A stretch of 60,243 nt of DNA, the filler included, from Sluysia triapertura (lineage: Eukaryota): assembly GCA_046118255.1 (NCBI GenBank). It is 5 parts of 5 records of this genome, joined end to end, with 100 filler letters (N's around TTAATTAATTAA, not from the genome) between each part and the next. Parts side by side here need not be neighbours in the genome. Positions count along the whole stretch, not along the records: positions 1 to 11,633 come from JBJNIA010182635.1; positions 11,734 to 24,379 come from JBJNIA010092121.1; positions 24,480 to 35,839 come from JBJNIA010185590.1; positions 35,940 to 48,192 come from JBJNIA010125411.1; 1 more part is not named here. One strand, 5' to 3'. Position 1 is the stretch's first letter, and every line of letters starts with the position of its first letter. Below, one piece after another: positions 4,548 through 41,090 of this stretch. The notes beneath the pieces were generated by a model. That model had not been told where the DNA came from. It did no database searches and saw only the letters and a list, made by a program, of their open reading frames with translations. The position numbers and the translations under genes were made by a program.

Positions 4548-5465
4548 AAAATTACGTTTGTATGAATAACTTTTGAATGAGAAATGCTATTGTGGTGACC
4601 AACTCAATATTTCAAAATTTTATTTTAACAATACACAACAAAATCACCTTTCAGAACATTCCTCAATTCTTAATACTTCCAAACATAAAATTACATAACA
4701 CCAGATTCACACTCAAAGATTTGCTAAAAGTTAATTCAAAATATTGCAAACTTAATTCAACACACTTCACATAAAATCACATTCCATAACCTTTTAAAAG
4801 AGATACTTATAGAATAAAATAAGATTTTTTACGTGAGTCCACCAACGTACTAAACTTACCAGTTAGGGCTAGCCGTTGGATTTATAGAAAAAATGGTTTT
4901 TAATTGCAAATGGGAATAACTTCCTAATCTAAGATTCTAAAGTGTTTGCGAGCTATTTAAATATTTTGCTGTCAAATAACAATTCAGAAATTAAATATCT
5001 AAATGTTCAAGTTTGGGAGGTATTTTAAAGAAAATGGGAGTAAATTTAAATATTTTATTAACTGAAAAAATAACAGTTGAATTATTTACGTAAATCTTAT
5101 GAAAATGATTTGCAATAAATGATTTTACGATATCAGAATTAAATTTTGATAAAGTTTTAATGCATGGGCGATTTATTGATTTTGAAACTATATAAATTAT
5201 TTGGTACTCAGATATTCAAATAAAAGATTCTTCTTGAATATGTAGTAATAAATGTAATTATACAACTATTTAATAATTATAATAAGTAATAAAAACTTTA
5301 CGTTAATTAACTATCAAAGATTATATTTTTTTGTAAGATATTTTAGTTTGATTTTTCGTAGGAACCGTTAAAAGCTTCCTTATATCTTTATAGAATAGAT
5401 TTTAAATGGAGTTTACGTTTGATACTTATAAGTATCTAATCATACAAAAATAAATTAACGTTTTC
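4548..5465 (-). repeat. Diverged ~0.9-kb unit carrying the conserved hairpin motif (copy F, 4833-4879)
   Basis: Colinear similarity with ~5905-6945: hairpin motif, cgta.gaaccg.taaaag.ttcc block and tttRcgt..gatactt...aaataaa.taacg end. Boundaries are approximate. Confidence 0.7.
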
Positions 5466-5695
5466 TTTAAATTATTCGATAAATAGAAAAAGCTCTTGAT
5501 TAGTCGGGTGTCCTTTTGTCAAGTGAGAAATAGAAATGATAAGCCTTGTGTTCTTGCACAATGAAACTCTATGGTAGTTTAAAAATATGTTTTTTGTGAG
5601 AGCTGTAAATTTTTTCATATTTATTTATGTTGGGGTAAAAAGGCCTAAAGTGCCATTTAGTAAAATTGACTATAAGAAAATAAAATCGTTAGACG

Positions 5696-5767
5696 GGGCT
5701 GATAGCTCAGTGGTAGAGCAATCGAACTGCGCAGCGATGGTCCCGGGTTCGATCCCCGGTCAGTCCA
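5696..5767 (+). tRNA. tRNA-like sequence (Cys-related?) with a non-canonical anticodon arm; pseudo-tRNA or tRNA-derived repeat
   Basis: Acceptor GGGCTGA/TCAGTCC, D arm GCTC-AGTGGTA-GAGC (A box), T arm CCGGG-TTCGATC-CCCGG (B box). The anticodon arm pairs only ATCG/CGAT around a 10-nt loop AACTGCGCAG. Confidence 0.7.
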
Positions 5768-5904
5768 TCTTACGAAGTCTAACATTTATAAATAAGTATT
5801 TTATTTATATGCACTTTTGTAATGTCCTTAACCAAAATAATTTAAAACAAAATGGTATATAAAAAGAACTATTTAATTAATATTAATAAATTAATTTTAT
5901 AAAT

Positions 5905-6945
5905 TAATAAATACTTACAAAATATTTCCAAAAATCATTTATTTAAAAATACGAATAATACTGTTATTCCAAATAAATCAATTGTTAAAAACATAAATAT
6001 GCCAAAAATATAAATAGTATTGTTATTAAAATCAATAAACAAAACATAATGATAAATACATATTGTTATCAGCAATTGTTATCAACAAAACAACACTTGT
6101 TACTAATAATAATAATAAAACGTCACAATTTTAACAATTCTTACAGCTAAACCTTTTCATATTTCATTTCCTTTACTTCCACTAAAATCTTATCCTAACC
6201 TTCTCAAAACATTTCTATTTCATACTTTATAATATTAAAAGTACATTCGCTTTCAGATTAATAACAGACATTTAAAAATTTATTAAAAACATTTTACTCA
6301 TATTTCCATAACAGCATATCCATAATCACATCTGTTAACATCTTACAACTACCTTTAGAATGTATCAAAACTGTGAGATTTTACTTATAGAATAAAGTAA
6401 AACTTATACGTGAGTCCACCAACGTACTAGGCTTACCGTTTAGGGCTATCCGTTGGATTTTAAATAAAAGAATTTTAATTGAAAATTTTAAAAACTTCTT
6501 AATGCTCGTTGGTCTATTCCTAAAGTATTTTGAGAAATGAATTCTGGATTTTAAGGAATTTTGTAATTAATATAGGTTAATTATGATATTTTACGATAAT
6601 CCTATGAAAAGGATTTATTTATATTGATTTTGCGAAGTTTAAGATTTTAAAACTATAAAAATTGCTAATATTCAAAATAATAACTTGCCTTTAATGATGT
6701 ATTAACAAATATTATAAAAGTTATAATATTCACAAAGGTTATAAAAGTTATAATACAACAATAAAATGTTACACTAATTAATTATTATCAAGTTAATTAT
6801 TTAAATAATAACAAATTTAAATATATGTTACGTAAGAACCGATAAAAGGTTCCCAATATTTTATAAAAATGAATTTTAAGTGTATTTTGCGTGGGATACT
6901 TTCAGGTATCAAAACCTTAACAAAATAAACTAACGTAAATTATTT
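5905..6945 (-). repeat. Diverged ~1-kb unit carrying the conserved hairpin motif (copy G, 6410-6456)
   Basis: Colinear with 4548-5465; its left part also resembles ~7248-7470 and ~39490-39690. Boundaries are approximate. Confidence 0.7.
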
Positions 6946-9807
6946 TAGAAAATCGACAAGATCCTGGCGAAGAATAAATTTTAATCAGTTAATTGCCTTC
7001 TTGAATGTGTAAAGATCTTGATTGAAAAATTCGTAGAAATCTGGATTATGAAGAATCGTAAAAGATTTATCGTGTAAACAAAATTGTACAGTAAAATAAA
7101 TTACACCAAAAAATACATTGTGTTGTTTAATGCCTTTTTATGCTATTTTATATGCTTTTTTATGTTGGCCTTGACCTTTTATTATTAGAACAAATTTATT
7201 TTATAATAATTTTAAAAATATTATTTTATAATAATATTATAATGTTAAAAATACTTACGTTAGTTTAATCCAAATAATAAAATAAATGATTTAAATAAAA
7301 TCCAATAAATGATTAAAATAAGCGATTAAAACAAATCAATAATTAAAAATCAATAATTGTTAATAATAAATATGCACACATATTATCAAATAAAAATTTA
7401 ACAATTGTCGATTGTCACGTAATAATTACTTGTTTACAAAAGCGTTGCTATATTTTATTTCTTTCAGATCCATTAAAATCATATTTATATCTCAAAACAC
7501 TTAAGTCCACAAGTTATCAACATCCAAACTGTACTTTCAGCTAAAACCATTTAAAAAATTCATTTAAAACATTTCATTCATTATCTTATAACATTATTAT
7601 CACAATTACATCTCAAATTATCAAATTTACGTCTTAAAATTTAATTCGAAATATTTCAAGTTTACAATCATTTACACTCAATCTCTAATACCACTGAAGA
7701 CATTAAATTAATACTTTGAAATCATTTAGACATTACAATCAGAAGAACATTTACACTACAGAAAGTCATTTAAAGACAGATTATGTTGACAGAAAGAGAA
7801 AAGATTTGTGTTTTTATTAAACATATTTTACTTTATTATAATCATTATTTCGTTATTTATTATAATTATTATAATTATCAATATTTTAAATTAAAATTGT
7901 TATTTTTGTGGTTACTATACTTACTATATACTATCTATGCTGTCATCCTTGACAGCTTTGTAATTCTTTTTGATTAGTACTATTAAATTATTGTCTCAAA
8001 ATTATTTTTGTTTGATTGATTATTTTTGTCTGTGTTAATAATAAATTTGCATCACATCGTTGACATATAATCATAAACACCAGAATTGAAGAGTGACAAA
8101 ATAAACACCGTTGTAAAAAAACATGTTGGAATTTTACGGTGACAAATTAAAAATCAATTTAATTTATATTTTAATTTTATCTAATCCGAATTATTGTTTG
8201 TAGAATTTATATCAATTTTTAAATCTATTTTCGTATAAAGTAATTATTTATGGAAACTATGCTATCTAAACATAAACATTTGGATGATATTTCGTTGTAA
8301 TTAGTGTTAATCGTACAATTCGATGAATTAGAATTTAAAATATTAGAATTCGTTAAAGAACCAATTCTAGAATCGAAATTTGCTCTTTACCTTCAAATTG
8401 TATATTAAGATTAGTAGACAAACTAAATGCAAAACATGTTGATATAAAAAAATTCACTGAAATTCACGTGACTTTCAAATAAAACGATTCGATACAAACC
8501 ATCTTAATACTTCAATGTGTATCGTGATGAAAATAGATAAAAGTATACATGTCTCTATCGATGTAAGAAAATTATATCGCAAAGAAAATTATATCATTAG
8601 TAAAAAAACATGGCAAAAGTAAAAACAAAGACTGACAATTTAAAACGTTACTATAATAACAACATATCTTCGCTTAAAATTTCACAACCTTATGTCCATC
8701 AATGCAAACATTACAAACCCATTATCTTGATAAATCTTATTAAAAAAATTTTTTATCTAATTAAATCTCACAATTTCAAACTTACAATTTAATCTAATAC
8801 ATAAAACCAGTCTTATAAACATTTGAACACTTTCATAACTATCTCTTCTACATTCATTAAGAAACATCTCATCTGATAAAATCGATCAAATATATAACAT
8901 TCAAATCACAATTACATTCCAAACCATTAAATTACAGTAAAAAAAACCATTCAAAACATTTTATTTTCAGCTTTAAACAATTCAATTTCAACCACATTTA
9001 AAATCAATCATCAAACACCGTCAAATAATCTTAAACATTTAACATCCCTGTATTTACTTCTTTTACTTTTACTTAAAAACATCATCAGCACCCAAAAGTC
9101 ATTATAAACACTACCTCATGTAAAACATTAAAGTGTATGCTAACATTTAAAATTAATTCACTTCAAGTGCAAAGATAATAGTAAAATTAACATTAAAACA
9201 CATTACACAGCATCTTACATCTTTAAACTTTAACATCACAATTTTTAAAGCCCTATCTCTTTGTATTAAGTTAATATGTTTAGAAAGGTTCAAGAGTAAA
9301 AGTAAGATTATTTTGATTAGAATTTTAAGAGTTTATATGTTTTCTTTTTAACATTGATAATAATAATAATAATAACAATATTGTCGTCGTTATTATTATT
9401 ACCAATTTAATCATTATATTTGTCACTATTATTATTTTTATTTTATTCCACCATTTTTAGTTTATACAAACAAAATCAGTTGTCATATACAGATTTTAAC
9501 CAACACTGATAGTGGTTGCAATCAATTGATACACTGCAATACAAAATTTGTATTACAACCAATAAGAACACAACATTGAGTACAGTTCTAATTTCTGTTT
9601 TTAGCACAAAATAATTATTCTGAAGGTTCAATACAACATTGCCAACTAAATAGATTTAAAAAACAGAAATCATTGATTATTGGTCAGCAGTTAACAATTT
9701 ATTATTTTCATAAATACAAATTTTTTGCGAGAATTTATTGGCAGCAAAAAATTAACATTTTTTACTTTATCATTGATCACAGTTCTGTTTCAGTTAAAAG
9801 ATAGATC

Positions 9808-10998
9808 ATGAATTCTGTTAAAAGTTATAACAACAATAATGATTATAAAGACAATAACCTTAAAGTTAAAAGTTATGATAACGATGATTATAAATACATT
9901 AACCTTAAAGTTAAGAGTTTCGATATCAATGATGTCAATTATAAAAACGATAACCTTAAAGCCACGATAATCATAATGATAACTATAAAGACGATGATTT
10001 TAAAACTAAAAGTTATGATATCAGTAATAATGATTATAGAAACAATGATTGTAATGTTAAAATTTATTATATCAATAATACTTATTACAAACACGATGAG
10101 TCTAAAGCAAAATTGATCGCAATTTGCCCATTCTCTACTGACGAATGTAGTTTATGTATTAAGAACTAAAGTCAATGTCCCTACACACTTACAACATACG
10201 AATTGGAAGCTCAGAAGAACTTTGGATCAATTTGTGTTTGTCACTCTTCGAGAATAGACGGACTTCTCAAAGACCTTCTATTACGAATTACCAGAAACGT
10301 AGAAATCAAAAAGAATCGAAACGATCGACAGGTATCCTATAATTTTATTCACAATTATAATATCATAAATTTTATTTACTTTTTAGGTGGAAAACATGGT
10401 CATTTGAAGATCGTATGCAGGATCCGGCTTTTAGTGTTTAAAAATATCAAAAATAATAAAACTTTATACATTTTTATAAGAATTAATAAATTGTTGTCCA
10501 TTTTTCAGTTTTTTCTAAAAAAATTTATTAATGCTCAGATTTTAAAAGAAAATTTTAAAATTCACTTAAGTATTATATTATATAAATGTATTAATTCTTC
10601 CAAAATTTTAAAATATTTATAATTAATTTATTCAAATTATATGTATCAAAGTTCTAATTATGCTAGTTCTAATGAATGCTAATTCTATATATTTAATATT
10701 TACAATGCTAATTCTATTTACACTAGCTATATTTAACAATGCTAATTCAAATAGATTATTCTAATTCGAATAGATTATTTTAATTCAAAATTTATCATAT
10801 GAAGTTAAAATTTAATTTAATACATTATAAATATTTTAAACCACAACATTATACTTATATGGAAGAATGGATAATGGTGAGTGTTCCCGATATGGCAAAA
10901 AATGTATATATGGTCACGAAGCTTTTGAAATCAGGGATCTATTTGGTTCAACATTGAATCTCAATGATCATCCTCGTAGAATCAGGGCCTTATTATGA
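9808..10998 (+). pseudogene. Decayed gene with ~15-aa LKVKSYDNxDYK repeats followed by CCCH-zinc-finger-like remnants
   Basis: ORF 9808-10116 carries the repeats; then ICPFSTDECSLC..*SQCPYTL..YELE near 10120-10210, GT-AG at ~10332-10387, and LYGRMDNGECSRYGKKCIYGHEAFEIRD...ALL* at ~10855-10998. Stops and frameshifts are present. Confidence 0.4.
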
Positions 10999-11633
10999 AG
11001 TGTGACATCATCACCATTAGACTGGAAGAACCCATATAAAAATGTAAAATCTCAAATCTTTAGTTGGCCCTTAAGGTCAATTACAAAATAGTTATTGTAG
11101 GGTAGAGTCCTTTGGCTAGACCCTTATTATAGTTTAATTATTATCCCTATTATAAGTTTATCATACATAATATTTTTTCATTATTAATATTAATTTTTGT
11201 TGAATTTTTATAAAGTTATATTAATTTTATATCTTTGGTGTAATAAAAAGACTTGAATCTTTTTCTTATTTAAATTGAGCTTATAGTTGCTCTATTTTTC
11301 GAATAATTTACGATTAAATACAATTTTAATCTAGAATATCTTGGTTGTATTATCAACTCATTAAATTTTAAAGGTTCTATCAGTCATTGTATTAGAATTT
11401 AGAGGTATACCATCATTATTTACTTGATTTTTGTACTAATTCAAATATCTCTTAAGCTAGCGTTGGTCTTAATTAGTTTTTTAAGTTATTTATTGTTAAT
11501 TGACATAAACGACAATTTTGCCCATTATTGTTAAGTTAAGGCAAAGAATGTTTTTCGTACGATTAATTTTGATAATTGTTTTCACGTAATTTTACAGGTA
11601 CGCCATTAGTAAGTCGTATACTGTAAACGGACT

Positions 11634-13118: not shown

Positions 13119-16100
13119 ATGAGCAAAGTGATTGAGTATGTAATTTTAAATTTTATCATCATTTGACAGTTCTGTAAAATGTAGAATATGTTTGGAATCT
13201 TGCGACAACACTGGTGACATTATTCAACCTTGTTTGTGCAAAGGTTAGTTTTGAATTTGTGTAACTACTGAGTATGAACACGTCATTGTTAGGTACCATG
13301 GCCAATGTGCATCGTCAGTGCTTACAAAACTGGTTATCCACAAATCGTCGTATACATTGTGAAATTTGTCTTCAAAAAATGACTTTCAATGAAACTCGTT
13401 TTTATGCTCGTAAATGTTGCAGTCGTTGCATGTTTAGCGATCTGTCTTGTGTGATAGTTTTAATCGTTCTATTTGGATTGTGTCTTTGGTTTACAAGTCA
13501 TTCAGTAAATTTAACACGGCGAAATTTTGTTTCAGTTGATAATACGAATAATGATTTAAATACTACGAGTTATTTGACAAACATGACCGATTTTCCGATT
13601 ATCAATATTGAAGCTTTAAGTTTAACAATTCTTTTTGTAGTTTTGATTTTGATATGTGCTTTTTGGTTAATCGTTAGTCTCAATTTTAAATTTATTCTAT
13701 TTTTCATTTAAATGATTGTCCCAAAAGTAACCGAACCGCAAACTTAAATGTTCACATCTTGAACTTCAATACAAGCACGACATCTTTTGGCAACACTGCG
13801 ACACACTTTCTGGCAAGTTTCCTCTGAAGTCTGGAATACCTAGTGATTATTCACAAAATTGTACAAAATTCTCATCGTTGATCCGAGTCATCCTCATTTA
13901 GGGCATGAAGAAGATGAGGTCTGTATGGTTTTAGACCAATGTCACGCAAGGTACGGCGGAGTGAGGTTCGAGAAATGTTTAACTCTGGGAGAATGAACGA
14001 ATGTAGCTGCAACTATATCAAGGTGAACGAACTGTTTTCGGACGACCTTATTTAGGAGCATTTGACACATTTCCAGTTACTTCAAATTTAGGTACAAGAT
14101 TGAACATTGTCGACTTACTCGGTACAGGTGTTCTGAAGTTTGCTTCCCATCTTTCTTCAACTTGCTTCTAGAGAGTCCTTGCATATTAATTCTTAATGGC
14201 GAGAATATGTTCGTTTAAATCTAAAATCGATCCAGAAGTGCAGGCTGAAGAAAAATCAATAAGATCATGCAACAAAAGTCATCTCAAAGAAATGAATGGT
14301 AGCGACGATAACATAAAATAACAAAAGAAGAAATTATGTTTAAGTTTGCGGTTTGGTTACTTTTGGGACACCCTGTATGGAAATTACTAAAACTACAAAA
14401 AAGAAAAATTAACTAAATTTGAATAAAGTTTTTAATTGTACCTCTTTTCTGCATAGAAAGTGAAACTATAACAAAAAGTAAAAGAAAATAATCTCCCGAA
14501 CAATTAAAAACAAAACATAAATAATTCATGAAAATAGATACAACTGAAAAAACTTTCGAAGAACAGTTTTTGCAAAAGTAATCTACGAAAATATTGTTAA
14601 AATTCCTCTTCAACTCAAACTTGAAGTATAATCAGTCACAGTATCACGAAATATCGCGACAAAATGTTCCTCAAGGTGAGGTATGACTGGATTAATGCTT
14701 TAACACGTTAATGTTCATCTGGGTCACGCTAATTTTATCACATAATTTAGATATCGCATTTCGAAAAAAGTTAACTTTGTACTGTAAAAATGTTCTTTTT
14801 TCATTGTTATATTTGTCTATGTTCCAAGTGAAAATTTTGTAATTGATGAATCACTTGTTCCTTTGAGAAGTAGGCTTATTTTCTGCCAATAATAAAGTGT
14901 ACTTCGTAAGGATGCACGTGGGTTAGCAAAATTTATTAGGCAAATCTGATATTTTTGATAGAAATTACGAATTAGTCGCAAAAATGAAGGTACAGCGTTA
15001 TATATGGACAACTTCTATACCAGCTATCCGCTAGCATTGGCATTTCTTCGATAAAAGACGCATGTTGTAGGCACCGTAAGAGCAAATAAATGTTTATGCC
15101 AAATGAAGTTATGTACACTAAATTAAAAAAAATGAGAAATAGTAGTGAAACTCGAAATACCCCAGAAATAGTGGATTTATATACAACTTCTGCCAGCACA
15201 GTAGGCAAAGAAATAATAAACAAAACCCACTTTCAATTTGTGCTTAAAATAAAGGTAAAGCAGAGATAGCTATTTCAGATCAAATAGGATCCTGTGAAAA
15301 GACTCTTAAGGAAGAATAAAATGGTACCTCAAGTTAGCAATGGACTATTTTCTTGGAATATCAGTCGTGAATACTTATATAATGTACAAATTTTCCACGA
15401 AAAGCAATGTAGGAATTAGACAATTTAGTGAAAATTTGGTTACTGATATGCTTAACTTAGGTTCGAACATAACTGAAAAACGAAAAACGATTTTTTAGTT
15501 TTGAAAAGAAGAATGTGCATTTGATGTTATGCCCAAATAAAAGAGGCAGAAGGTCGAGAAGTATCAAGAAAAAACAATATTGCTCAGTCTGCAAACAGCA
15601 TTGGGCAATATTATAAGTCAATGTAATTTTTTTAATGTAGTTTTTCAAGTGTAAAATATAGCATTATATAACTAAGACTGTTTTATTTGTATTTTCATAG
15701 TAATCCAAGTAATTTTCACATTTTTTTTCTGGGAGGCTTAGGTTTTGAAAGATATAGCAAATTTATCGTATATCGAATGTCAGTGACTGATGTGACCTTC
15801 CTCTTAATCCAGAATGTCGGACACATATGACTGATATGGCAATTAACGTGTATGAGAGCACTGTCAAATTCGACAATCATTGATTAGTTGAAATGTGATT
15901 GGTGCTTTTATTGTTTCATGACACATACGATCATATACTTCAAAATATAATTATGAAATTCTGCGCATCCAAGTTGTAGTTCAAGTATTGCTCTATATTA
16001 TTACCAGTTATTTCGCTCGGTGAAATATTCTAAGAGGATTGACAATTGGAAATAATGGTGACGACAGAATATTTTTATAAAAATTATCGAGATTGGAGAA

Positions 16101-17957: not shown

Positions 17958-18685
17958 AAGTGGCGAGAATCATTATTTATGAGGATATGAATAACAGTTT
18001 CCCGAAAGTTGATCGCTCTCGAGAATCGTATGAACTAGTACTATAGCAATGGTTTTATTTTATACATTTTATTTTATTTTACACAAAAAAACAATAATAT
18101 TTTATTAATAAGGAATAGAACAAACAATACAATAAAATAAAATAAAGAAAAAATATGCCATTTGTAAAAAATAACTAAAAGTACTACTACTAGAAAATAT
18201 TTACAACATGCCGTAAGCTGCCATACTGTATTTTCTTCCTGCTTCACGTCTTGTGGCCTTTTAGATTTATCCAGAGCCGAGCGATGATTTTTCAAACAAG
18301 ATTTAACGTACGCGTTAGCGTTAAATTCTTCCAAAGATTTCCCATTTAAGCAGACCGTCATAAAATCCGAAATGTGTTTAAAAGTGATAGAAGATCTTTT
18401 CATTTTAAAGATATTATTCATTGAACTAAAAGCTCGTTCAGCTTCAGCGCTGCAAACTGCAATTGTTTCCATAATGACCGTGTTAATTTCGATTTGGAAT
18501 TTTCCAGTCAGTGCGTTTTCTACTAAATCTCTAAAATCATTTATCATTAATTTCATTTTTTAAAATAAAATTCCAAGTTCATATTCTCTTTTCTTCTGGC
18601 CATATTCCACGTTTCAGGATAACATACATTGAATATGTTTTTGAAGAATAAGGGGCTCGCGCGAGCCCCATATAGCTCACCACTG
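17958..18685 (-). mobile_element. Internally deleted hAT transposon retaining the C-terminal dimerisation domain (ORF 18074-18556)
   Basis: TIAVCSAEAERAFSSMNNI...RSS....ISDFMTVCLNG is the hAT dimerisation motif. The 5' end CAGTGGTGAGC lies at 18685 with a subterminal GGGGCTCGCGCGAGCCCC palindrome; the left end (aagtggcgag, ~17958) is tentative. Confidence 0.8.
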
Positions 18686-18992: not shown

Positions 18993-20092
18993 TGTATATA
19001 TTTCCCCCATAACTTTCATTTTCAGAACTGTTGTATCTTAAGTAATTCAATTCTTCTAGATTTCACGCCATTCGGATATTAACTCTATCTGCTAATTTTA
19101 TTTAAACCGAAAAATTTCAAATGGATTTTCGAACAATGAAGAGGGTTCATTTTTTGAATATTAAATTTATTGGTATTTCTTTATTTTTCTTGTGCGCAGC
19201 AATTATGATCAATGTCTTTTGTGGGTTCACCTGTAATCCTGTGATTAATATCCTTATGGAAGGCACGGTTACAGGTTTGAGTCAATTAATTACGAAAGAG
19301 GGTCCTTAATCGATAAGCAGAAACAATCTTTTTACCGAAATGTTTTTTATTTCTGAAATGCTTTATTTAACGGTAATTATTCGTAACTTTAAACAATTTC
19401 AGAACTAAATAGTCAATATAACGTTACATATATTTATTACGGTTATGATAATCTTCGTATTGGGATTAATTGAAATTAACCGATAAATGGATTTCATAAA
19501 ATTTCGAATTAACTATGTTATAGGCTGACAAATGTTCTAATTTTCAAATAATCACTTAATTAAATGTTTTCTTCTAACTAAAAATTTAATTTATTATTTT
19601 AGCTATTTGCGGTTAACAAACATTTTATAAAGTTTTTGTAACAAAAACAACTAAAAGTATTTGTCAATCGTTTTATTAATCAAAAAATATATAAAAACTA
19701 AGTTAATACGAAAATGACAAATAATAATAAAAATATAAACAAATGAAACTAAAGATTCCCTTAGTTTTAATCTTTACGAAATTTAAGAAATTAATATTGA
19801 GTGAAAAGTGAAAAAAAGTCAAAGATTGAGACTAAATTATTATAGTCAAACTTACGATTTCATGGATTGAAAGAACGGAAAAATCCAAACAGCAATTTTC
19901 TTTGATGAGTTTTTTGGTCAACGCAAACCAATTGATAAATAAAATTGAATGTGTCTCAAAGAGTTAATTCAGATGAAGAGAAATAGTTTCCAAGTTTTAT
20001 TGTTGTTAATTCCTTCTCAGCAGAGATTAAAATGTCTACAAATTTTTTATTGTGAGAATTTATGTTTCCATTTATTAAATTATTTACCATAA

Positions 20093-21045
20093 AAAATACT
20101 TCACGTTATTATTGAATTGAGTTATAAAAATATAAATAAAAGATAAAATATTTGTACTCATAACTTTAAAATTTTGAATTTAGTTTTTCATGTAAATATT
20201 TAAGATTAAAATTTAAGATTAAAAGTTATTCTTACAACGACTAAAGTTTAAAAATTAAAATAATTTACAAAAATATTTACAGAAATTCATTATATCAAAG
20301 TATAAATTACATTTTACAAATTCAGAGTATCATTACATACATATTTTACAAAGAAACTTTACACTCAAACACATGTTAAAAAGCAATGTGAATAGAAAAA
20401 AAAGGTAAAGATTTTATTTTATTCTTAACTGTGAGTTACCTACAATCTTAGACTTACACACTTAAGGGCTAAGTTGCAGGCGGTATCTTAGAAGAAATTA
20501 TGGAGGTACTCAATCAGATTCTTAGTAGAACTTGACAATCTTAGTGATAAGATAATGTGAAAAAATTTAACAATTGAGTTTTAAACGAGATTACTTATGT
20601 AGAAAATAATTACACTTTTGTTAATTCCTTAAAAATTTCATAAATCTTTATTGTCGGTTATCAAAAATTATCAAAAACTTCAAAAATATTTTGTCTGTAT
20701 TTCTCGACCGTGTAAAAACGGCGTACCTTAATTTTCTTTTATCCAACAGTTTCAATATTTTAACGTGAAAATTACTTCGGGAAAATTAAAATCGGGAACC
20801 TTAAGATTATTGACTAAAATTAAAATCAAGATGAAGATGTTTTTTAACAAAATATATGAAGTTAGAATACAAAATATAACAAATATATATAATTATAAAA
20901 TTTTAATAGATTATAATATAATCGACATATTTTAGTTGTTACCACCTTCTTAAAAAAGGGGTTTTATAAAACAAAGATGTTAAAACAATTGATTTTACCA
21001 ACAATTAAAATAGTGTCAACTTATAGCAATAACTAACGGATTTAA
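20093..21045 (-). repeat. Diverged ~0.95-kb unit carrying the conserved hairpin motif (copy C, 20431-20480)
   Basis: Same layout as F/G: CA-rich left flank, motif, then a taactaacg end ~560 nt to the right; left end aaatacttcacgtta is tentative. Confidence 0.55.
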
Positions 21046-21633: not shown

Positions 21634-23114
21634 CTAATAGTGTGATGACGGAGATATCGTCATCACACCAAAAAATTCGTTATCAGTTAAATTTCGTCCG
21701 ATAGGTCCATATTCGCTGTCATCTTTTTCTGCGTCACTGTCGTCGAGGTCTACGGGCGAGTCTAATTTTCTCCTCTTGACTTGAGGTTCTGATGGTTTTG
21801 TCTCTATTCTTACCGGCTGTCGTTCTCTTGTTAGTTTATTCCCGTTTCCTGTGGTTTTCTTTGACTGGTTTTTCTGATTATGTACATTTTTCGATATATT
21901 GCTTTAATGGCTTTTGCGAGGGGGTGTAAAAGGAATAGGCTTATCGAAGTGTGGAAGTGATGTGCAGTTTGTGTTTTTGTTACTAGAGGTAGAAGGAACA
22001 AGAGAAAGATGTGAAGAAGAAAAAGGTGAAGGGCAAAAAGAAAAAGGAGGAGGTAAAGGAGAAGTGATTTTTGAATCGTCGATTGGTGGCAAAAATGACT
22101 TATCTTTACTTTGTATTAGGTCGAATAGCGATATTAAATCTTTAGCGTGTTGTAGGCACGAAACACGCGGTGGGAAGAGATATAGGAACTTCAAGACCTT
22201 CCGCGCCCTTAAAATTGGATTGAATGATTCGTGCGATACTAAGTTTGTGCACGAAGATTGATAATTCCCCTTAGCCAGCCATATTGGATTTTAAACGTAT
22301 TGATAATTATATCGGGGAAAAATGCCACTAATATTTTGTCTTAATGATTGAAGCCAATATTGACGAATATCATCTATATATTTCGCGTTAATTAAATCAT
22401 CTTCCCTTAACCCATGCTCTGCCGCTAGAAAATTCCTAATCCTTACACACGGTTTTAGCAATTCGTCGGAATGAAAGAGTTTGTGATATGACATCAAACA
22501 AACTCTTATTGGTTGATAATTCTCCTTAAAATCTAAAGCGAGTTGTACGGCCACAAACATTAATTTATTTTTATCTAGCATTGATTTGTGTGGGGTATGG
22601 GTAAACGTAAGTCTTTCCTCCCACTTATAAAGATTGTCCTTATCTTCCGCGTATAATAAGGGGTGCTTAAATAATTCTAAAGGTTTATCGATGTTGAGAG
22701 AAGAACATCGAAGGTTGTGGGTAGTTCCTCTGCTTCAACATGCACTTCGCAACTTGGTGTCAGATCTTTTATTATTAACGACGAATAACCCTGTATTCGT
22801 GAATATAAAGGAACCTTATTTACAAATAGTGATACCTTAAGCGAACCCCCAGCTGCGGCGATAATCACTTGACTATTATCCTTGGGGTAGCCCTGCAAGG
22901 TATTTATAATCAGAGGGTGTTGAATTTGTTTAATGTAAAACAGGTGCGTGATAAAATTTTGATTTAACTCGTTTTTTAAGATATTAGGAGTTAGATTAGA
23001 TTTCAATAGTACGAAGGGGCTGTCATTTTTATCGCAAAAACGATCAATACCATTATAAAAAGAAGGGATATTATTTGTTATGTGTGCGTGTGGAAGTTTT
23101 GTTGTTGCAGACAT
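21634..23114 (-). pseudogene. Disrupted intronless ORF (~490 codons) of unknown family, with a Pro/Ser-rich and basic/acidic C-terminal tail
   Basis: ORFs 22677-23114, 22291-22581 and 21904-22194. The last two share a frame, which continues to 21634 through two TAA stops. GC is visibly higher than in the flanks; the tail contains PQVKRRKLDSPVDLDDSD. Confidence 0.6.
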
Positions 23115-25151: not shown

Positions 25152-25331
25152 ATTTGATTTTGTCATTGTTTACTTCTTAAATTGTACACATTTCTGATAT
25201 TCTTATTCAATTTGATTTTGTCATTGTTTACTTCTTAAATTGTACACATTTCTGATATTCTTATTCAATTTGATTTTGTTATTGTTTACTTCTTAAATTG
25301 TACACATTTCTGATATTCTTATTCAATTTGA
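25152..25331. repeat. Tandem repeat, 3 x 58 bp
   Basis: atttgattttgtcattgtttacttcttaaattgtacacatttctgatattcttattca starting at 25152, 25210 and 25268. Confidence 0.95.
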
Positions 25332-25469: not shown

Positions 25470-25517
25470 AGTCTGACCGAGAATCGAATCCGGGACCTCT
25501 CGCTGTGCAGTTCGATG
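25470..25517 (-). pseudogene. 3' half of the same tRNA-like sequence as 5696-5767
   Basis: Reverse complement CATCGAACTGCACAGCGAGAGGTCCCGGATTCGATTCTCGGTCAGACT; the 5' acceptor strand and D arm are absent. Confidence 0.75.
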
Positions 25518-26240: not shown

Positions 26241-29200
26241 TCTGCGGGTCATCATTTCAATAGATGGATTACATATGAAACAACAACAGTGAATAATTTT
26301 ACTGTCAAATGAAAGAAACAGTTCCGAATAAAGATCAATTAATTCAATTAATACACTAAATTAAAATTTAAAAAACTTAAATGTATATGTGGTTTATGTT
26401 TGTATAAAATAAACAAATTATCAAATATGTCGTTTGCTTATAATATAGTATTGTATTATGATATAATAATGTATAATAATAATTTATACAATAATTTATA
26501 AAATAAATCATTCATTATAATATTTCTGAAAATATAAATGTTCAACTTTTCTAAGCTTGAATCAATTATAAAAATTATTAAATTTACGGCTTCGCCTGTG
26601 ACACACGGTTTATATTGCGTGAAAGACGTGCTCATAGGATTTTTGTTGAAGAGTGCTGCGTGGAAGAGTTCCTTACTACTTGAATGCAACTTCTTAAATG
26701 CTAATATGTATTTGTGACTTTATAATATTTTTACAATTTTAACGCAACAAATTTAAAACTACAAAATTGTCAATAATTATTCAATCAAGATTTAACTACA
26801 AAATTATTACAAATTAATTACTCAAAATAACTCAAGAGAATATTCTTTAAATATTTAAATATTCTTTAAAAACAATAATAAATTATACAGTGTTTATAAC
26901 AAATATAAATATATAAATATAAAACACTCAGGATTTCTCCAGGATAAAATAAACTTGGGATTTTTATTAAGATTTTGACTCTGGCGATTGCTTGAGTTTT
27001 CAAAGAATTAATGATTTTAAGTAGATTTTAAGGCAAGTTATTTATGCCAAAACCTTACAAAATTTAACATACTTATTCAGGGAAACGAGTAGTTTTGAGC
27101 GATTGCTAAGTTCCAAATATATCTGTTGCTGATTCAAATATCTGCAATCAATCCACGTATCCAAACGAATTTATAAAAATCGTAAATCACGTTACTATTG
27201 TTATGGAATTCCTATTATAGTTTTTTGGTCTTTTATATGCTTTCTTTCGCCACCATGAATAAGAATGACAAACGAATAATTATTAGATTTTAATTAATTA
27301 CGATAAACATTTTATAATTTTAATCTTTGATCATTGCATAAATATAAACAATTTTTTAACTCTCATTAAATAACGTAAATATTTAATTTTCTGATTAATA
27401 ATTTAATTACCTTTTATTATATTTCGAAGTTTAAAATTAATTAATATTATTTACAATAATATATTTTATTCAACAATTTAATTAAACAAGTTTCTTTAAA
27501 AAATTCTAATAAATTAACAATTTTCATTATTAACAAAAATTTCTTTCTGAATTTACATTATTTACAGTACAATAAAATTTGTCTTTGTTCAACCAAGAAA
27601 TATGAACATTGTCGATAAATCACTTAACAAATTTATTAATTTATATATCTATTTTTTAGAAAAAGATTTCTTCAGATTCTTTATTATCATCGTCGTGTAC
27701 TTAAAAACACATAATTGTGTAAACAATGTAGAAAACATTATTCTCTTTCTACAGGATCAAATAACAATTATTTTAAAAATTTGTAATTGCACCTTTCAAA
27801 CCCGATTTTACAAATATCATAGCGTATAATAAATTTAACGCTTTAAGTTATATGTTCATAATTCATTACATTATTTTTGACCTCATTAACTTAAAATATT
27901 ATAACTTAGTATATCGTTATACAAATTTATGAATGATTTAATTAAAGTTAATTAATATAAAATTAACTTACTAACTTATTAATTTCACATTATTGCATAT
28001 ACTAAACATAGAATGTACAAAATTATGTCTAAAATTTTCACCCTAATGGAAATGTAATTAAATACCTTCAACATATTTTACGTTAAAATTTCCTCTACAA
28101 AATAAATATAAAAATCAAATTACGCGCTTAATTATTGTCAATATAAATGATTTAAACAAAATATATAATTATAAAAACGTATTAACTAGACTAAAAACAT
28201 AAACATTTGCTTTTATATTGGATTTGTTTGGTCCACGCATAAATTACCAGTTCTGATTAAAAATCAAATGATACAGAAATTGTAACTTGTACTATGTATT
28301 GAAAATGAAAATTATGCATAGAAAAAATTAAAATACTTATCTAAACTCAATGTTTCATAAGAATATTTCATTAATTTAAATAACTTAATTAACTTTTTCT
28401 ATAGAAAACATTTAATTTCAAATAATTTGTACTCAAAGACTTAAATATTGAAATTTCGTTTAACTAAAAACTTATGCTATACTATTTACATATCTTGGGA
28501 AAACAAATGCTTACTTGTCACTGTTTTGATTTCTTTTGTAATACATAGACTTTACTATCTTCAATTGCAGTATTGATTGTGATAATTTAAATAATATTAA
28601 CTCGGCAGCTTTAAGCACTTTATACTCAGTATGCTTGAAAACCAGAATCTGTGATAAATTTATTTCAATTTAACAATAAAAAAAATATTAAAAATTAAAA
28701 TTCCAACATTGGTGTAACTGTAACTTTATAATTACGTATTGCAGAAAAATCGGATCGCCAAGTTTATTTTTGCCAAATCAAACATAATGTTCATGAATTA
28801 ACGTGAAAAATTTTTAAATATTAAATAAAATTATTTAAATGACTTCTTTTATAATTATAAATTAATATTATCTATAATTTATCTACATTATGTAGGAACC
28901 AAATTAGATTTTAATTATTCTAAACAATGTAGTGGAATTATTTTAAATACACAATATATTTCAATAGAATTTAAAATTAGGGTAATATTTACTTTATCAT
29001 AAGAAAGTAAAGGAAACAAAACAAATGCGGTGATATATTATATCTTGATTATATTAATAATAATAATAGTAATAATAATAAGAATAATAATATTAAGAAT
29101 AGTAATAGTAATAAGAATAGTAATAATAATAATGTACATTACATATCCATTTTCAATACACAAGACAAAATTGTAAAGGCATTCATATCGATAAACATCT

Positions 29201-35058: not shown

Positions 35059-35137
35059 CGATTGGATTTTTAAAGATACTTTGGTACTTAGGATCTTTCC
35101 TTGAATTTCTGAGTATACTTATTGCATCTGGGCTTTT
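35059..35137 (-). CDS. Possible isolated coding exon of an unknown gene
   Basis: tttag|KSPDAISILRNSRKDPKYQSIFKNPI(G)|gtaagt; open frame with good splice signals, but no recognised homology. Confidence 0.3.
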
Positions 35138-38100
35138 CTAAACATAAATATTCTCATATTTAATGTTAATAATTAGGTGAATATATGTAAACTAAAAATT
35201 GTAGAAATTCTAACTTTATAATATTCTAATTTTATAATATTAAAAGTAACTCAAACTGATTAGTTGATTTGGGTGAATCAGCACCATCTCTTAGAGTAAT
35301 TAGTCAATTAAGTAAAATTCAATTAAACAAAATATAATTAAATATAACAAGTGGGTTCCAATGAATTAAAATATTTTCGTTTTTCATTACTTGTAAGAAA
35401 TAAAACCCCATAAATTTTTCAAAAAAATACAAAACTAAATATATATTCATAACTTTCTTACTAAAATCAGAAGTAAATGAAATAAAATATAGACAAGACA
35501 GACTTAATTGGCAAGCCCATAAACGACACACCAGAGGAACGAAAAAAATACATAATTTTGTTGAAATATGAAATGAATATTAATAAATACAAACGCAATT
35601 ATAAAAATGGTTTATAATGTATCCAAACCAATATTATAAAAGAAAATTAAATAATATATAGATAAATTTTGTCATTTCATTGCATACTAAAAATTCTAAC
35701 TATATATTTTAATTATTTTAAAATATAAATTTTGACTGTAAAGTTTATCATTATTAAGTTGCACAAAATTATTTATTTTCGATTAATATGAAACTACAAC
35801 ATTAATAGGATTGCAATATTTTATCAATCAAATCAGTTTNNNNNNNNNNNNNNNNNNNNNNNNNNNNNNNNNNNNNNNNNNNNTTAATTAATTAANNNNN
35901 NNNNNNNNNNNNNNNNNNNNNNNNNNNNNNNNNNNNNNNCCCGTCTAACAATTTCATTTTTAATATATTCAATTATACTACTTGGCACTTTTTAGGCCTT
36001 TTGCCCCAACAATTATAATTATTATTTTTTATTGATGCATTCATCGAAAAACTTTATATCCAAATAATTTTTATTACAAGTCCAGCTACAGCTTGTTGAA
36101 TATTAAATAATTTAAAATTAATAAAAATCAACGTTGTATGCTTTTTAAATCCATTTATTATTCGATGTACTTGCTAATTGTGACTCGAATATTATTTCCT
36201 CTCAAACATTCCATAAAGTAGTCAAAGAATGTATTATGATCTGTTAAGAATACGATAATAATAATGTTAAAAATAATAATAAAATCCGAATATAACAACA
36301 ATAATAATTTAGGAAAATAATATAAATAAACTAAATGATAGTGCAAAAATAATAATAATAATAATAATAATCTTAAAATAATAATATTAAATTTAGAATA
36401 ATTGCAATAATATTAAAACAACAACAATAATAATCTTTAATTTTAACTGTTGGTAATACGTCATTTTTTATTCGAAATCCAGTAGCCGCTGACGTAGTAG
36501 TACATTTTTTGACAGAATAACTTTGCTTGTGTTGCCATAAAATAGTCGATTAAGAATTTTTAGTGGCCAGTTACGAGTTAAAAAGAAAAAATATATAAAG
36601 CTCATAAAAACATGCAGGAAAAATAATAAATGTTCTTTTACCGAAATATAACAATTGCACAAAATGATCAATCATCTAGCTATTGATATTACGAAAAAAG
36701 ATATGAGGCAAACTACAAACAGTCGAGAACAACTTGATAAAACATTTATTATCGAAATAATTAATGTCCATCGTTGTAGAACCAATAACTAAAAAATATC
36801 TTCGCTGACGTTAGTTTAATATATTTTAAACAATCATGATTTGGCCTTTTCATAAATTGAAATTGTAATAAAGTTTGTCTTTCTCCATTTCAATTATAAG
36901 TAACTTTAAATTGGCGAATGTTTTGTTGATAATCAGGGTTATTATCAGAAACGATTTCGAGATTCAGTGCATTTTGGCCAATTAAATCGTCTCATGTGGC
37001 TAGAAGTGAATACTTATGTGATGTTTCAACGATTTATCACGATTATATTATATCATCTACACCACATACGTACGCAAAAACCTCATCTTAAACACATAAA
37101 TAATGTACTTCAGGTAACACACATCAATTTCCAAATCTCCATTATTAAACATTAACTTTATAAAAATCTTAAATAAAACTTATTACCAAACTTCAACTTC
37201 AGAAATAGTAAAATTATTTATAAAACGAATAAATATATTAACATTATATGATCTCAATTTTTGTAAACAACAATATTGTATTATATTGTAAGCAATTATT
37301 TGGTCTATTGAATTAATTAAGAATTTTTATATTATATTTTTTAAAAAAGATTATTTATTGATTAATAGTAATTCTCCCCAAAAACTCAAACTATCACTGC
37401 ACACGTTTCAATTTTTTTAATTCAGAATTCAATTTCGCAAAATAAATCGATATTTGTTTTTCAACACCGATTTAAACACGGTGATAAAATAAATGTTTTA
37501 TGAATCCAATTTAAAAAAGTATTGTAAAATCAAAATACAATTAAACCTCATCTACAGAAGGAAAGTGGATTAACTAAAATGTTTATAGACACAAACTAAA
37601 TGAAGTTTAATTTTGTATGTGGGATCATGTTTACTCGCCATGATTTAAACCTTTGAGTTATTTTGCGTTATCAAATTAATAGTTATTTGCATATAAACTT
37701 AAGTTTATTTTAATCTCTGAAATCTTGTTTTTATTTCTTTCGATTTAGTAAATCTTGTGAATGAGCCATTAATTGTTTAAGTCTCGAAACACAGATGTAC
37801 ACAATAATTTCTTTTATTTATTTTTGAATTTTAAATGTCTATTTTGAGGTTTCTATTATATTAAGATTATTGATCGTTTTCAGATTTAATTAAAAATTGA
37901 TTATTTTCTGATTTAACATAATTACCGCACAATATGATCACAGAGTGAAAGCGCAATTTTACATTCTACCATTAGAGTTTATTAATTTAAAATATAATTT
38001 ATTGTTCAATTATTTTCGGGTAATATTTGTCATTTTATTTTAGCAGATAGATATGTCAACCACAATTCTCTAAATTAATTTTAAAAATTAGAACGTTTAA

Positions 38101-38439
38101 TTATGATATAATAAACTATAGTAAAAGCATTAAAATAATAATAATTTGCCGAAAAGTGTAATAATAATAATAATAATATTATTTTTTTTAAATCAAAATC
38201 GTTAAAATTCTGAAAATATATTAAGAAATTTTTAACCGACAATTATTGGCGTCTAAGGACAAATAAATTTTAACGGATCATTTTTGGTGTCAACGAAGCA
38301 GATAAATATTTGTGCGTAATTTCGGTGCACTAAACAATTACACGTTGCACGTTAGATTTTATTTCATTAGTTTTAATATCCTTAAGTGATATCTGCGAAA
38401 AAACTTTAGACTTAACTTTGTAAGTTTAAATGTTATATT

Positions 38440-39245
38440 GTGAGTACCCTATGATGTTGGGCTTACACAATTAAGTGCCAACTTTAGGTGTCAGCAAAAG
38501 AATAATGTTGCAAATTTGTTTAAATGATTTAAATCCACTGTATAGCGAGTTTTGTTTTTGATAATTTATTTTGGATCTAAATTGAACAGATATAAATGTA
38601 AATTTTAATTATTATATGTATGTGAAGAAAAATAAAGATTTGGATTTAAAAGTAAAAGAAAACTTTTATGGGTTAATCTGATGTGAGGTTTTAAATTGTA
38701 TCTATTAATGTCAGTTGATGTTATTTTACTGAGGTTCCTTATTAAATAGAACCTGTGAAATTTGGTTTGATTTTAAGGTGAAATTTAAATTTATTTTTAT
38801 TATGGTTATATTGCTAAGGTCCTTCATTGGTTAATTGGTTAAATCAAATTGGTTAATTTTTAAAACGTATATTAGTTTACACAGATTCCCTATTTAAACG
38901 GAATCTTTAGAAATTTAATTAGATTTTTCTGTGGTTTCTAAATTATTAACAAAAGATATTGATAACCATTTTTCTTCGGTTCTTTAAAATGAACCTAGTG
39001 ACTCAATTATTTTTAAATTTAGATAAAAATAATAAACAAAACAATGTATTAATATGGTACTAAATAATAGTAATATTAATAATAATTTAGAGAGGATTAT
39101 CTTTGACTGATAATCTTAAATGACTAAGAATTTAAATTGATTTTTCTTTGTTAACAAAGTAAATGCTAAACAAAATGTTTAAGTAAAATTTACTCTGTAA
39201 TAATAAATAATTGCGTGATACTTATATGAATAAGACTAACGAAGT
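38440..39245 (-). repeat. Diverged unit carrying the conserved hairpin motif (copy D, 38440-38488)
   Basis: Motif plus end block ttgcgtgatactt...gactaacg at ~39211-39241, matching the F/G ends; left boundary unresolved. Confidence 0.55.
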
Positions 39246-40568
39246 TTTAAATAATGTTTCGTTTTTTCAGTGCTAAATTTTTCTCAAATATAAGCCTTCG
39301 CCAAAGATTTTAAATCGTATGAATAAATTTAGAATTAAAAATTTTGGCTTTTAATAAATTATTTAATAAAATATTTTAATTTAAACAAAATTAATATTCC
39401 AATAATTCAATATTTCGTTAGTTTAATCATTTTTTGTTTAATTTATACAATAGAATGTTAATAATAATTTTTTTAATTTATAAATATAAAATAACTTACA
39501 TTAGTCAAATCAATAATCCAAAATCATAATTATAATTTATAACTGTTCATAAATAAACATACTTTATAAATTTACACATAATAATCGATCAATAAACACA
39601 CAGTCATTATTTGCAGTCTATAATTTGCACGAACAAGTTTACATTTTATTACGTTTTTTTTTGTAAGTATATTACAGTTATAAAGTTTGATTAATTTACC
39701 TAAAAAGAAATGGTAACTTATTGTTCTGAAGACTTTATTAGAATTTATTTATTTAAATATAAAATTAATCAATACCCCAGTTACAAAGTTTTATTAAACA
39801 ATAAACAATTTTCAATAAATATTAAAAATATGGAAAATAATAAATAAAAAGAATACAACTCGTAGTATAATATCGTGTTAATTTATTTAATAATAATAAT
39901 CCTTTATTGATAATAATTTAATGAAAATTTAAAGTATGGATTTTACTTGTGTAATTAAACTATACTAAAAATTATGTTAAATATCAATTTTAGAATATGT
40001 TAACTTTCTTTTTCAAATCTTTTAAACTAACGAAGTAAATTCATTCTTCTACAAATCACAATTGAGGTCTAATAAATAATAATAATCCGTGCTTGAACAA
40101 CTAATGATTAGAGAGTAAATAATTTTGCTAATGTTCTTTGCTAACAATTTTTTGTGCTTATACAGTTAATTTGAAACAAATTTTTTGTGTAGATCTAATA
40201 ATAATAATGATAATAATCAATAGTACTTTAGTTTTTAATAATAATAATAATGTCAATTAATAATAATAATAATAAATAAATAAACAACTATTTAAAATTA
40301 ATAAATAATTTCATATTATTATTTTACAAAATTATTATATTGTTACTTTACATGTAAATTAATATTTTTCAAAGTTTTTACAGATAACATATCTAAAATG
40401 ACTAAAAATCATTGTAGCAAACTTAAGAGAGTCAGAATTTCTTGTAATAGTTACAAAAAGAGTTAATAGTTAATTTCATATTAAGATAATAGTACTAGTA
40501 ACCCATTAATTTAAATTAAGTAAGGAACCTTCATAAATTTCGACATTTTGCATTCTTTGATTAAAAAT

Positions 40569-41090
40569 CTTATAGACAAGCCCTTAATTGTGTAAGACTT
40601 GAGTCACAGGCAAATCAATTCATGATCCTAGATTTTTAAGTCAGGGATTCGTTTGGCATGAACATGGTACAGTTTTGACCGATCTCATTGGTTCATTGTT
40701 GTGCATTGGATTTTGGTTAGAATAAGAATGCTAGTTTATAATTTTGGATTTGGTATTAGTAAATTGGAAATTAATTTCTAGTGTTTGTTTATAAACAAAA
40801 GTATTTTATGATGACATTTTAGTACTTTCTGATTTTGACCACGATTTCCAATAACTGCATTTATTTGCTACTTTTAATATACATTTTTGCTAATACATTT
40901 TTATAGGCCTTTAATATCTGTGATAAAATATTAAGAAAATGGAGGCAACTGTTCATTATTTTTAAATATATAGATTTGTGGTTTTGATTTTCTGTTATTG
41001 TACAATATTTAATAAGAGTTAACAAGATTAAATTCGTATCCTTCGGACAGTCGTACAATTCACATATAGTGTAATCACATACTGTACGTA
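40569..41090 (+). repeat. Opposite-orientation unit with hairpin motif copy E (40569-40610) and a downstream cacatactgta block
   Basis: CAAG-CCCTTAATTGTGTAAGA-CTTG; GT-rich downstream tract; cacatactgta is shared with the ends near 11620 and 47100. Confidence 0.55.

Follow-up and report, generated by a model that had tools for sequence, protein, structure and literature searches.

A dispersed bulged hairpin with covarying stem as a probable end signal of an old non-autonomous mobile element in Sluysia triapertura

The window analysed here, 60,243 nucleotides of AT-rich DNA (filler included) from five contigs of Sluysia triapertura, contains scattered short hairpins with unlike stems and similar loops, raising the question of what would keep such a structure. 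An earlier note had described five of them (C, D, E, F and G) on three of the five contigs. Their sequences, coordinates and strands were correct and all five are real copies; as a count, five was too low, since five others (I, J, K, L and M) had been overlooked. The ten copies, approximately one per 6 kb in 60 kb and absent from one contig, are bulged hairpins of 45-55 bases, with a covarying stem of 7 bp, a 1-nt bulge and 5 bp, a loop of 12-21 nt in which the ends are conserved and the middle is variable, and a conserved 9-nt tail 3' of the stem. The motif is situated near an end of a noncoding repeat of 500-700 nt, of which there are at least three subfamilies; the near-end position is taken from the alignment of F and G, J being cut by the contig end and the other units having no alignable partner.

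The covariance-model search proposed in the earlier note was run on the window with a model trained on the five earlier copies and the reversed window as null. Four new copies (I, J, L and M) were recovered and ranked above the null; K fell within it under this model. The copies and the hairpins associated with them are as follows.

4833..4880, minus strand: copy F, subfamily B; bulged hairpin with 15-nt loop and tail.
6410..6457, minus strand: copy G, subfamily B; identical to F at 42 of 47 positions.
4804..5497, minus strand: repeat unit containing F, with homology to 6382-6965 (nhmmer E 3e-20; alignment).
6382..6965, minus strand: repeat unit around G (nhmmer and alignment with the unit of F).
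5351..5437, minus strand: conserved two-hairpin block upstream in the unit of F.
6825..6911, minus strand: conserved two-hairpin block upstream in the unit of G.
11591..11633, plus strand: copy J, a new member of subfamily C; 12 of 12 positions paired, loop of 12 nt, tail truncated by the contig end; covariance-model E 0.018, structure-only scan, 41 bits against 14.9 for the null.
11056..11125, plus strand: upstream two-hairpin block in the unit of J; the first hairpin bears a shortened motif loop.
47075..47120, plus strand: copy K, a new but decayed member of subfamily C; four A·C mismatches; 82% identical to J over 55 nt (blastn, E 9e-7).
46646..46705, plus strand: upstream two-hairpin block in the unit of K; the second hairpin is capped by CTTCGG.
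20431..20480, minus strand: copy C, subfamily A; 12 of 12 pairs, the best preserved copy.
20938..20973, minus strand: candidate upstream hairpin in the unit of C (offset -493), without demonstrated sequence match to other units.
19221..19275, minus strand: copy M, subfamily A, new; outer stem perfect, loop long and divergent; z -3.7, 23.4 bits.
19753..19786, minus strand: upstream hairpin in the unit of M (offset -511); resembles those of D and L, in a pattern derived from these same three hairpins.
26586..26638, minus strand: copy L, subfamily A, new; loop decayed, stem retained; structure-only scan, 19.6 bits.
27023..27067, minus strand: upstream hairpin in the unit of L (offset -429).
37754..37804, plus strand: copy I, subfamily A, new and partly decayed; covariance-model E 7e-4, 22.5 bits.
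38440..38488, minus strand: copy D, subfamily A; in the five- and ten-copy alignments.
38883..38918, minus strand: upstream hairpin in the unit of D (offset -429).
38398..38425, minus strand: second, downstream hairpin in the unit of D, whose 3' arm contains TAAGT.
40569..40619, plus strand: copy E, subfamily A, partly decayed; in the five- and ten-copy alignments.

The claim that stems stay paired while their sequences change was upheld on five and then on ten aligned copies. With five, 88% of 59 cells were paired and both sides had changed in 8 of 12 pairs, a level of covariation reached in none of 500 shuffles; slid controls were paired in at most 46%. With ten, both sides had changed in 11 of the 12 pairs, and pairing was present in 100 of 119 cells. 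Some details had been misread: the outer stem of E, described as degenerate, retains 5 of 7 pairs, and the inner stem of G, given as paired, contains an A-G mismatch. Pair-breaking changes were found in K, I, E and L, and the copies are a mixture of intact and decaying ones. A loop descriptor chosen post hoc had 6 matches, compared with 0.56 in 200 local dinucleotide shuffles, and 4 compared with 0.01 when a stem of at least 4 was added. Candidate H (44770-44815, minus strand) fits this descriptor and was discarded, as the combined model failed to recover it. H was excluded from the ten-copy alignment and from the model-null, second-hairpin and both-strand comparisons; the sets of 11 or 13 sites below (TSD, subTIR, CTRR, AATAAA, C-terminal-motif and GC-skew counts) still include it. 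When C, D, E, F and G were folded singly, C alone was better than its own shuffles (z -2.7), with z between -0.6 and +0.3 for the other four, so the evidence for the motif is comparative and not thermodynamic.

The strand on which the hairpin acts had been read from G-T pairs said to work in one orientation only. The ten copies contained 11 G·U and 9 A·C, which gives no evidence of strand. Folded as RNA, 3 of 10 copies did better on the strand of the earlier note; folded as DNA, 5 of 10 did. A G·U pair directly above the bulge was present on that strand in 5 of 10 copies, in all three subfamilies.

The covarying stems, and the letters conserved although unpaired in loop, bulge and tail, give the motif the look of a small ribozyme, and ribozymes occur at the ends of retroelements (PMC8501958, in the part cited). 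The hairpin could accordingly be catalytic RNA of a new kind, self-cleaving or otherwise, that cuts the transcripts of a non-autonomous element (retrozyme-like or Penelope-like) to unit length, a reading which we consider quite unlikely. On the opposite strand, tail and loop start can form a helix of 6-8 bp in C, D, F and G, but this helix never covaries, and from helix geometry it appears incompatible with a 12-bp stem across a 2-3-nt linker. The loop-tail pseudoknot suggested earlier was rejected for either strand: the pairing shows no compensatory change, and with the tail beginning 2-3 nt from the foot of the 12-bp stem the linker is too short, so that it looks sterically impossible. The loop also ranges from 12 to 21 nt, and the motif is a plain bulged hairpin without a multi-way junction. 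The retroelement ribozymes described in the same source (twister T-variants of Perere-3, HDV-like and hammerhead) are likewise short, dispersed by retroelements and have covarying stems, whereas their core sequences and topology differ from those of the motif. No small ribozyme (hammerhead, HDV-like, twister, twister-sister, pistol, hatchet or hairpin) was matched in Rfam, and core patterns of these classes gave only scattered matches. More generally, no Rfam family matched at E<=5 in the whole window or at E<=10 in three regions, in agreement with the earlier statement that the motif was not recognised as a known family.

The motif was more conserved than its surroundings. F and G had been presented as separate instances; both are copies of one longer unit and are not independent. 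Counted from the start of the motif, their homology spans -618 to +75, ending about 30 nt beyond the tail. The proposed link to a mobile element and a fairly constant position within a larger unit were supported. Identity between the two was 42/47 (89%) in the motif and 243/344 (71%) in the aligned flank (p=0.002), the motif arms having 46% GC inside DNA of 24% GC; F and G being neighbours, the excess could instead reflect host selection or gene conversion. Together with the covariation, this difference supports selection on a single-stranded structure. Between J and K the motif and the upstream block align and the interior hardly does, and C, D, E, I, L and M have the motif in common with flanks that cannot be aligned. 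Between 6 and 8 of the 10 copies have a second hairpin at -505 to -395 (look-elsewhere p 0.02-0.07). A switch of GC skew at the motif, as at an origin or between convergent genes, was strong only at F and G and was rejected as a general feature.

The identity of F and G despite the GC-rich arms, and the sharing of the motif alone by six copies, might mean that the hairpin, whatever its origin, is now held by the host at many loci for protein binding or RNA processing. This is improbable: the decay of K, I, E and L, the inconsistent position relative to the few genes seen and the contig without a copy speak against it, and divergence of subfamilies explains the same pattern. The decay is what would be expected of dead copies and counts in favour of a mobile element, a reading supported also by the covariation, the retained loop and tail, the one-sided position, the higher conservation of motif than interior, and a density of ten copies per 60 kb in a genome that has relics of other transposons as well, one with a piggyBac-type DDE and one hAT-like. 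The recurrent G·U pair above the bulge counts on the same side. The hairpin is thus probably the terminal recognition signal of an old, abundant non-autonomous mobile element of about 500-700 nt. While each subfamily multiplied, the protein of a partner element would have had to recognise the hairpin end; such a requirement would let the stems drift in matched pairs and the interior diverge freely, with loop and tail held, and the copies in the window would be inserted relics.

As to the partner, a non-LTR retrotransposon of the stringent type, with the hairpin as a LINE/SINE-type 3' stem-loop, appears the most likely, at slightly below even confidence. The 3' stem of zebrafish L2 LINEs can be swapped and the loop is read specifically (PMC4176376), and LINE and SINE 3' ends of monocots carry a hairpin of approximately 50 nt with compensatory stems and conserved loop and 3' flank, a type said to be common in stringent LINEs and SINEs (PMC3747384; both sources in the parts cited). 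The stem-loops of ZfL2-1/ZfL2-2, UnaL2 and monocot L1/SINE elements resemble the motif in their length of about 50 nt near the element end, in the bulged stem with compensatory changes and in the conserved loop and 3' flank, and their stems are exchangeable (PMC4176376, PMC3747384). In this reading the hairpin would act as RNA near the 3' end of a transcript. A reverse transcriptase would recognise the sequence of the loop but only the shape of the stem, and would begin target-primed reverse transcription about 30 nt past the tail.

The motif differs from these stem-loops in its loop of 12-21 nt and variable length, in the absence of a simple-repeat tail, in that neither an RT gene nor a tRNA head was found here, and in the tendency to a second hairpin 400-510 nt upstream. 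Of the 9 scorable copies, 8 had no simple-repeat tail within 150 nt, although old copies may have lost it. No RT or ORF2 remnant was shown upstream of the motif, in searches limited to the window and weak on decayed DNA; stop codons were not depleted upstream of the sites, no Pfam match was obtained in six frames of F and G, no homologue for the best frame of D, and no codon-position bias between F and G. A C-terminal motif occurred upstream of 2 of 13 sites against a background of 6%, and CR1/L2-like C-terminal peptide remnants read by hand upstream of C, D, F, G and L were persuasive by eye and failed the tests. An ORF remnant 5' of C was rejected as the parent element (no homologue; a low-confidence model with only middling fold matches). 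AATAAA was present at 2 of 11 sites. Flanking 10-mer repeats occurred at 3 of 11, the 11-mer of K alone being plausible as a TSD. No B-box was found within -650 to +110, and the upstream end showed neither a tRNA head nor a pol III box; the sole tRNA-like sequence (5696-5767) lies on the opposite strand to F, outside the unit shared by F and G.

A fairly fixed length and a second hairpin would suit a two-ended DNA element equally well. The motif might then be a hairpin of ssDNA at the end of a non-autonomous transposon of the rolling-circle type (Helentron/HINE-like or from a new Helitron-like group). It would be read by a HUH Rep/helicase, and the upstream hairpin would be the other end, which we regard as rather unlikely. 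This agrees with the spacing of about 400-510 nt between two apparently structured ends and the free interior between them, with the tandem arrangement of F and G, and with the lack of strand bias, of a retro tail and of a consistent TSD. HINE/DINE-1 elements (non-autonomous HLE2) are, like the units here, noncoding repeats of a few hundred nt; they have a hairpin at either end, and their interior is free (PMC4067079, PMC7492417, PMC11417382). In the passages cited, the hairpin at their ends consists of a subTIR and an IR 3-22 bp from it, and a 3' palindrome is also present (PMC4067079, PMC7492417). No pair of 11-18-bp sub-terminal inverted repeats, the Helentron HINE/HLE2 trait, was found here: an inverted 11-mer match occurred in 3 of 11 units and at 42 of 193 random sites, and a relaxed search gave at best p 0.12 for inverted matches, although decay could hide a 13-mer. 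The 12-mers within 6 kb matched only other motif copies or chance. CTRR was present at 4 of 11 sites at varying offsets and no fixed distance, and the Helitron HLE1 trait, a hairpin of 16-20 nt followed at about 11 nt by CTRR, was not found at the 11 sites. Here the loop is conserved and not the arms, which is not how those passages describe HINE/DINE-1 ends (PMC4067079, PMC7492417).

Two further readings are each highly improbable. Ghost loci of Fanzor are non-autonomous, approximately 550 nt long and have conserved ends (PMC10432273), and in TnpB/Fanzor2 RNAs the apical loop pairs with the last five bases of the scaffold (PMC10711439; both as cited in part), so the motif could be the structured right-end guide-RNA scaffold of such elements. 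The units here, however, have no inverted repeats, three-stem scaffold or Fanzor nuclease remnant (F and G frames, Pfam), the pseudoknot is unsupported, and F/G homology persists for about 30 nt into the stretch after the tail in which a variable guide would be expected to start. Alternatively, the opposite strand could be a structured, introner-like spliceosomal intron of 48-57 nt: in C, D and M it starts with GTG(A/G)GT and ends with YAG|G, and introns of approximately 50 nt are present in the window. The terminal AG arises because the stem is palindromic; in F, G, J and K the terminal AG or GT is missing, and the flanks are noncoding.

Motif strings and a description of the motif were not found in the literature searched. 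In prokaryotic genome contigs a stringent motif pattern had no match and a loop-only pattern had one (L001), lacking the flanking stem; blastn of phage sequences gave no motif match. It is unlikely that hairpin and tail form an undescribed functional RNA motif, possibly self-cleaving or end-processing, that marks out a new group of non-autonomous elements of 500-700 nt; these would be structured at both ends, lack TIRs, tRNA head and repeat tail, recur roughly every 6 kb and be retained in part by the host. If the hairpin is a LINE/SINE-type 3' signal, differing by its longer loop and extra conserved tail, the copies would be a set of naturally occurring mutants of an element that reverse transcriptase recognises, and a handle for annotating old repeats that cannot otherwise be aligned and for finding the partner element. 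In a rolling-circle element it would be an end structure beyond the HLE1/HLE2 rules, and if self-cleaving, a new ribozyme class.

The hairpin under study, a 45-55-base bulged structure with a tail, is judged to be a real, covarying end-structure of a mobile repeat, without an Rfam family. The five copies reported in the earlier note, C (20431-20480, -), D (38440-38488, -), E (40569-40619, +), F (4833-4880, -) and G (6410-6457, -), were all found in place. The covariation claimed for their stems also held: the five-copy alignment pairs in 88 % of 59 cells, with two-sided changes in 8 of 12 pairs, which was reached by 0 of 500 shuffles, and slid registers pair in at most 46 %. Counting against the observation, only C beats its own shuffles when copies are folded singly, and F and G form one subfamily. 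A post hoc loop descriptor gave 6 matches versus 0.56 in shuffles, or 4 versus 0.01 with the closing stem added.

The covariance-model search proposed earlier was run on the window with these five copies and yielded I (37754-37804, +; E 7e-4), J (11591-11633, +; E 0.018) and, weakly, L (26586-26638, -) and M (19221-19275, -), both at E 0.8-0.9. A shape-only scan (7+5 bp, one bulge, no sequence term) has C, J and L at the head of its 44 rows. A combined score trained on the five copies placed J at 41.0 bits, M at 23.4, I at 22.5 and L at 19.6, its null being the reversed window (best 14.9 bits); when only C, D, E, I, L and M served for training, G, J and F came back with 36-37 bits versus 13.7. 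The tenth copy, K (47075-47120, +), matches J by blastn (E 9e-7) and is its decayed twin. H (44770-44815, -), whose tight hairpin has a loop like that of the motif, failed the combined model and was dropped; 418 nt upstream of it, a hairpin at 45200-45235 (-) carries GTGTAAGT.

On the strand of the earlier note, the motif often opens with AAAT. Its stem has an outer part of 7 bp and an inner part of 5 bp, and the loop, 12-21 nt long, has a CC(C/A)TTA-like start and TAAG(C/T) as its end. On the 3' side, a single bulged purine (A in 8 of 10 copies) separates the inner arm from the outer one, after which comes a tail resembling (C/T)G(A/G)AC(C/T)CAC. Of the 9 scorable copies, 5 have a second TAAG(C/T) 26-34 nt past the stem, often inside another hairpin, versus a 4.5 % background (post hoc). 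Judged by arm sequence, the copies fall into three groups, A (C, D, E, I, L and M), B (F and G) and C (J and K). Across all ten, pairing is seen in 100 of 119 cells, of which 89 are Watson-Crick and 11 are G·U; the remainder comprises 9 A·C and 10 other. Two-sided change occurs in 11 of 12 pairs (reached in 32 of 5000 shuffles) and in 32 cells (0 of 5000), the covariation of I, J, L and M being not wholly independent because these were selected partly for pairing. The closing G-C pair shows no covariation. The pair-breaking damage in K includes four A·C; the tail of K also forms a hairpin with bases some 40 nt downstream (47112-47165, +; -13.6 kcal/mol), the 3' arm of which repeats an 11-mer found 486 nt upstream of the motif start (-486).

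With G·U at 11 versus A·C at 9, the earlier argument for strand from G-T pairs lapses, and that strand gives the better fold in 3 of 10 copies when treated as RNA and in 5 of 10 when treated as DNA; the one feature in its favour is a G·U directly above the bulge, present in 5 of 10 copies and all three groups. The suggested loop-tail pseudoknot fared no better: its letters pair without covariation, and by helix geometry the tail, with a linker of 2-3 nt between it and the base of the 12-bp stem, should not reach the loop.

If a trans-acting protein had selected the hairpin end during the element's multiplication and the inserted copies had decayed afterwards, one would expect what is seen here: stems that change in pairs between subfamilies, a loop and tail kept alike, an interior free to diverge, and copies with pair-breaking damage. 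Among described systems, stringent LINEs and SINEs come closest with their 3' stem-loop. The stem of zebrafish L2 elements is exchangeable and the loop specifically read (PMC4176376), and a monocot LINE/SINE pair has a hairpin of about 50 nt with compensatory stems and conserved loop and 3' flank (PMC3747384). On present evidence the window hairpin works like such a signal, and it is a candidate member of that class. Searches of the window found no RT remnant near the copies, no repeat tail after the motif, no tRNA head for the hairpin units and one possible TSD only. LINE-like peptide ends, read by eye upstream of copies, gained no support in tests.

In line with the earlier note, which recognised no known family, no Rfam family matches the motif, and the reading as a known ribozyme found no match in the window. 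Apart from one loop match without stem, 185,579 prokaryotic genomes gave no motif match, nor did phages, and the motif strings, like topic searches, drew a blank in the searchable literature. The hairpin is probably a variation on an already known sort of signal, and a new functional RNA class is unlikely.

Counted from the motif start, the homology of F and G spans -618 to +75, with 42/47 positions identical in the motif and 243/344 in the aligned flank (p=0.002), and no codon-position bias in the shared unit. It contradicts a Fanzor ghost end, for which PMC10432273 and PMC10711439 predict a variable guide directly after the scaffold. Host selection on the hairpin is a possible alternative, since F and G adjoin each other. 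J and K are alike in the motif and in a block of two hairpins lying 430-540 nt upstream, and share little between these, and the 500-nt flanks of C, D and E align neither among themselves nor to F/G. Strong hairpins with start points between -505 and -395 are present in 6 of 10 copies (top 1.5 %; look-elsewhere p 0.043) or 8 of 10 (top 3 %; p 0.026), with p 0.075 and 0.017, respectively, when F/G and J/K are merged. A similar hairpin is common to D (-429), L (-429) and M (-511), with no other match in the window to a pattern derived from those three hairpins themselves. Together these observations point to a unit of 500-700 nt with two ends, though without proving it. HINE/Helentron elements carry a hairpin at each end, but the subTIR pair described for them in PMC4067079, PMC7492417 and PMC11417382 was not found around the window copies. 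An intron on the opposite strand would fit C, D and M, but only these.

I (37754) and D (to 38488) stand tail to tail, 640 nt apart, and D (38440) and E (to 40619) back to back, 2.1 kb apart, both without shared flanks; given the motif density, these arrangements are probably chance. Other features of the window are:

21650-23114 (-), frameshifted remnant of an ORF, richer in GC and 1.2 kb 5' of copy C
5617-5767 (+), tRNA-like sequence with irregular anticodon loop and upstream flank; recurrences at 35940-36022 (-) and 25473-25516 (-)
4600-4800, 5900-6400, 7400-7700 and 8600-9200 (+), four strongly C-rich, G-poor segments

For one piece of the ORF remnant (22294-22734), a search of 1.84 billion representatives gave no homologue; the structure predicted from the single sequence of 22680-23114 (pLDDT 48) is similar to AlkB/double-stranded beta-helix folds (Z 6.9, rmsd 3.1, 114 aligned), though the match is not a confident one. 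The tRNA-like sequence has an 80-nt upstream flank that is seen again at a contig start, and the 3' half of the tRNA-like sequence is found again elsewhere; it appears to be a tRNA-derived repeat with a conserved stretch 5' of the tRNA part. The C-rich segments, spaced about 1.3-1.5 kb apart and loosely alignable, two of them ending just past the tails of F and G, are possibly decayed 3' ends of another retroelement.

The window is 24 % GC overall, in five contigs of about 12 kb each with N-spacers between, and has short introns, numerous AAT repeats and no CpG depletion (o/e 1.12). These traits mark it as part of a fragmented eukaryotic assembly, probably from an animal. Two exons may be PLC-beta-like and SLC37A3-like. 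Further features are:

14600-15600 (+), broken piggyBac-type transposase (DDE remnant; PF13843, E 3e-8)
18077-18559 (-), weak hAT dimerisation-domain match (E 0.008, under the curated cut-off)
13168-13710 (+), RING-variant (MARCH-type) domain exons (PF12906, E 2e-7; intron about 50 nt)
1704-1972 and 56485-56763 (+), 217-nt repeat, 86 % identity across two contigs, without the hairpin motif
25152-25331 and 49832-50031, near-perfect tandem arrays of about three copies each (58-bp and 60-bp units)
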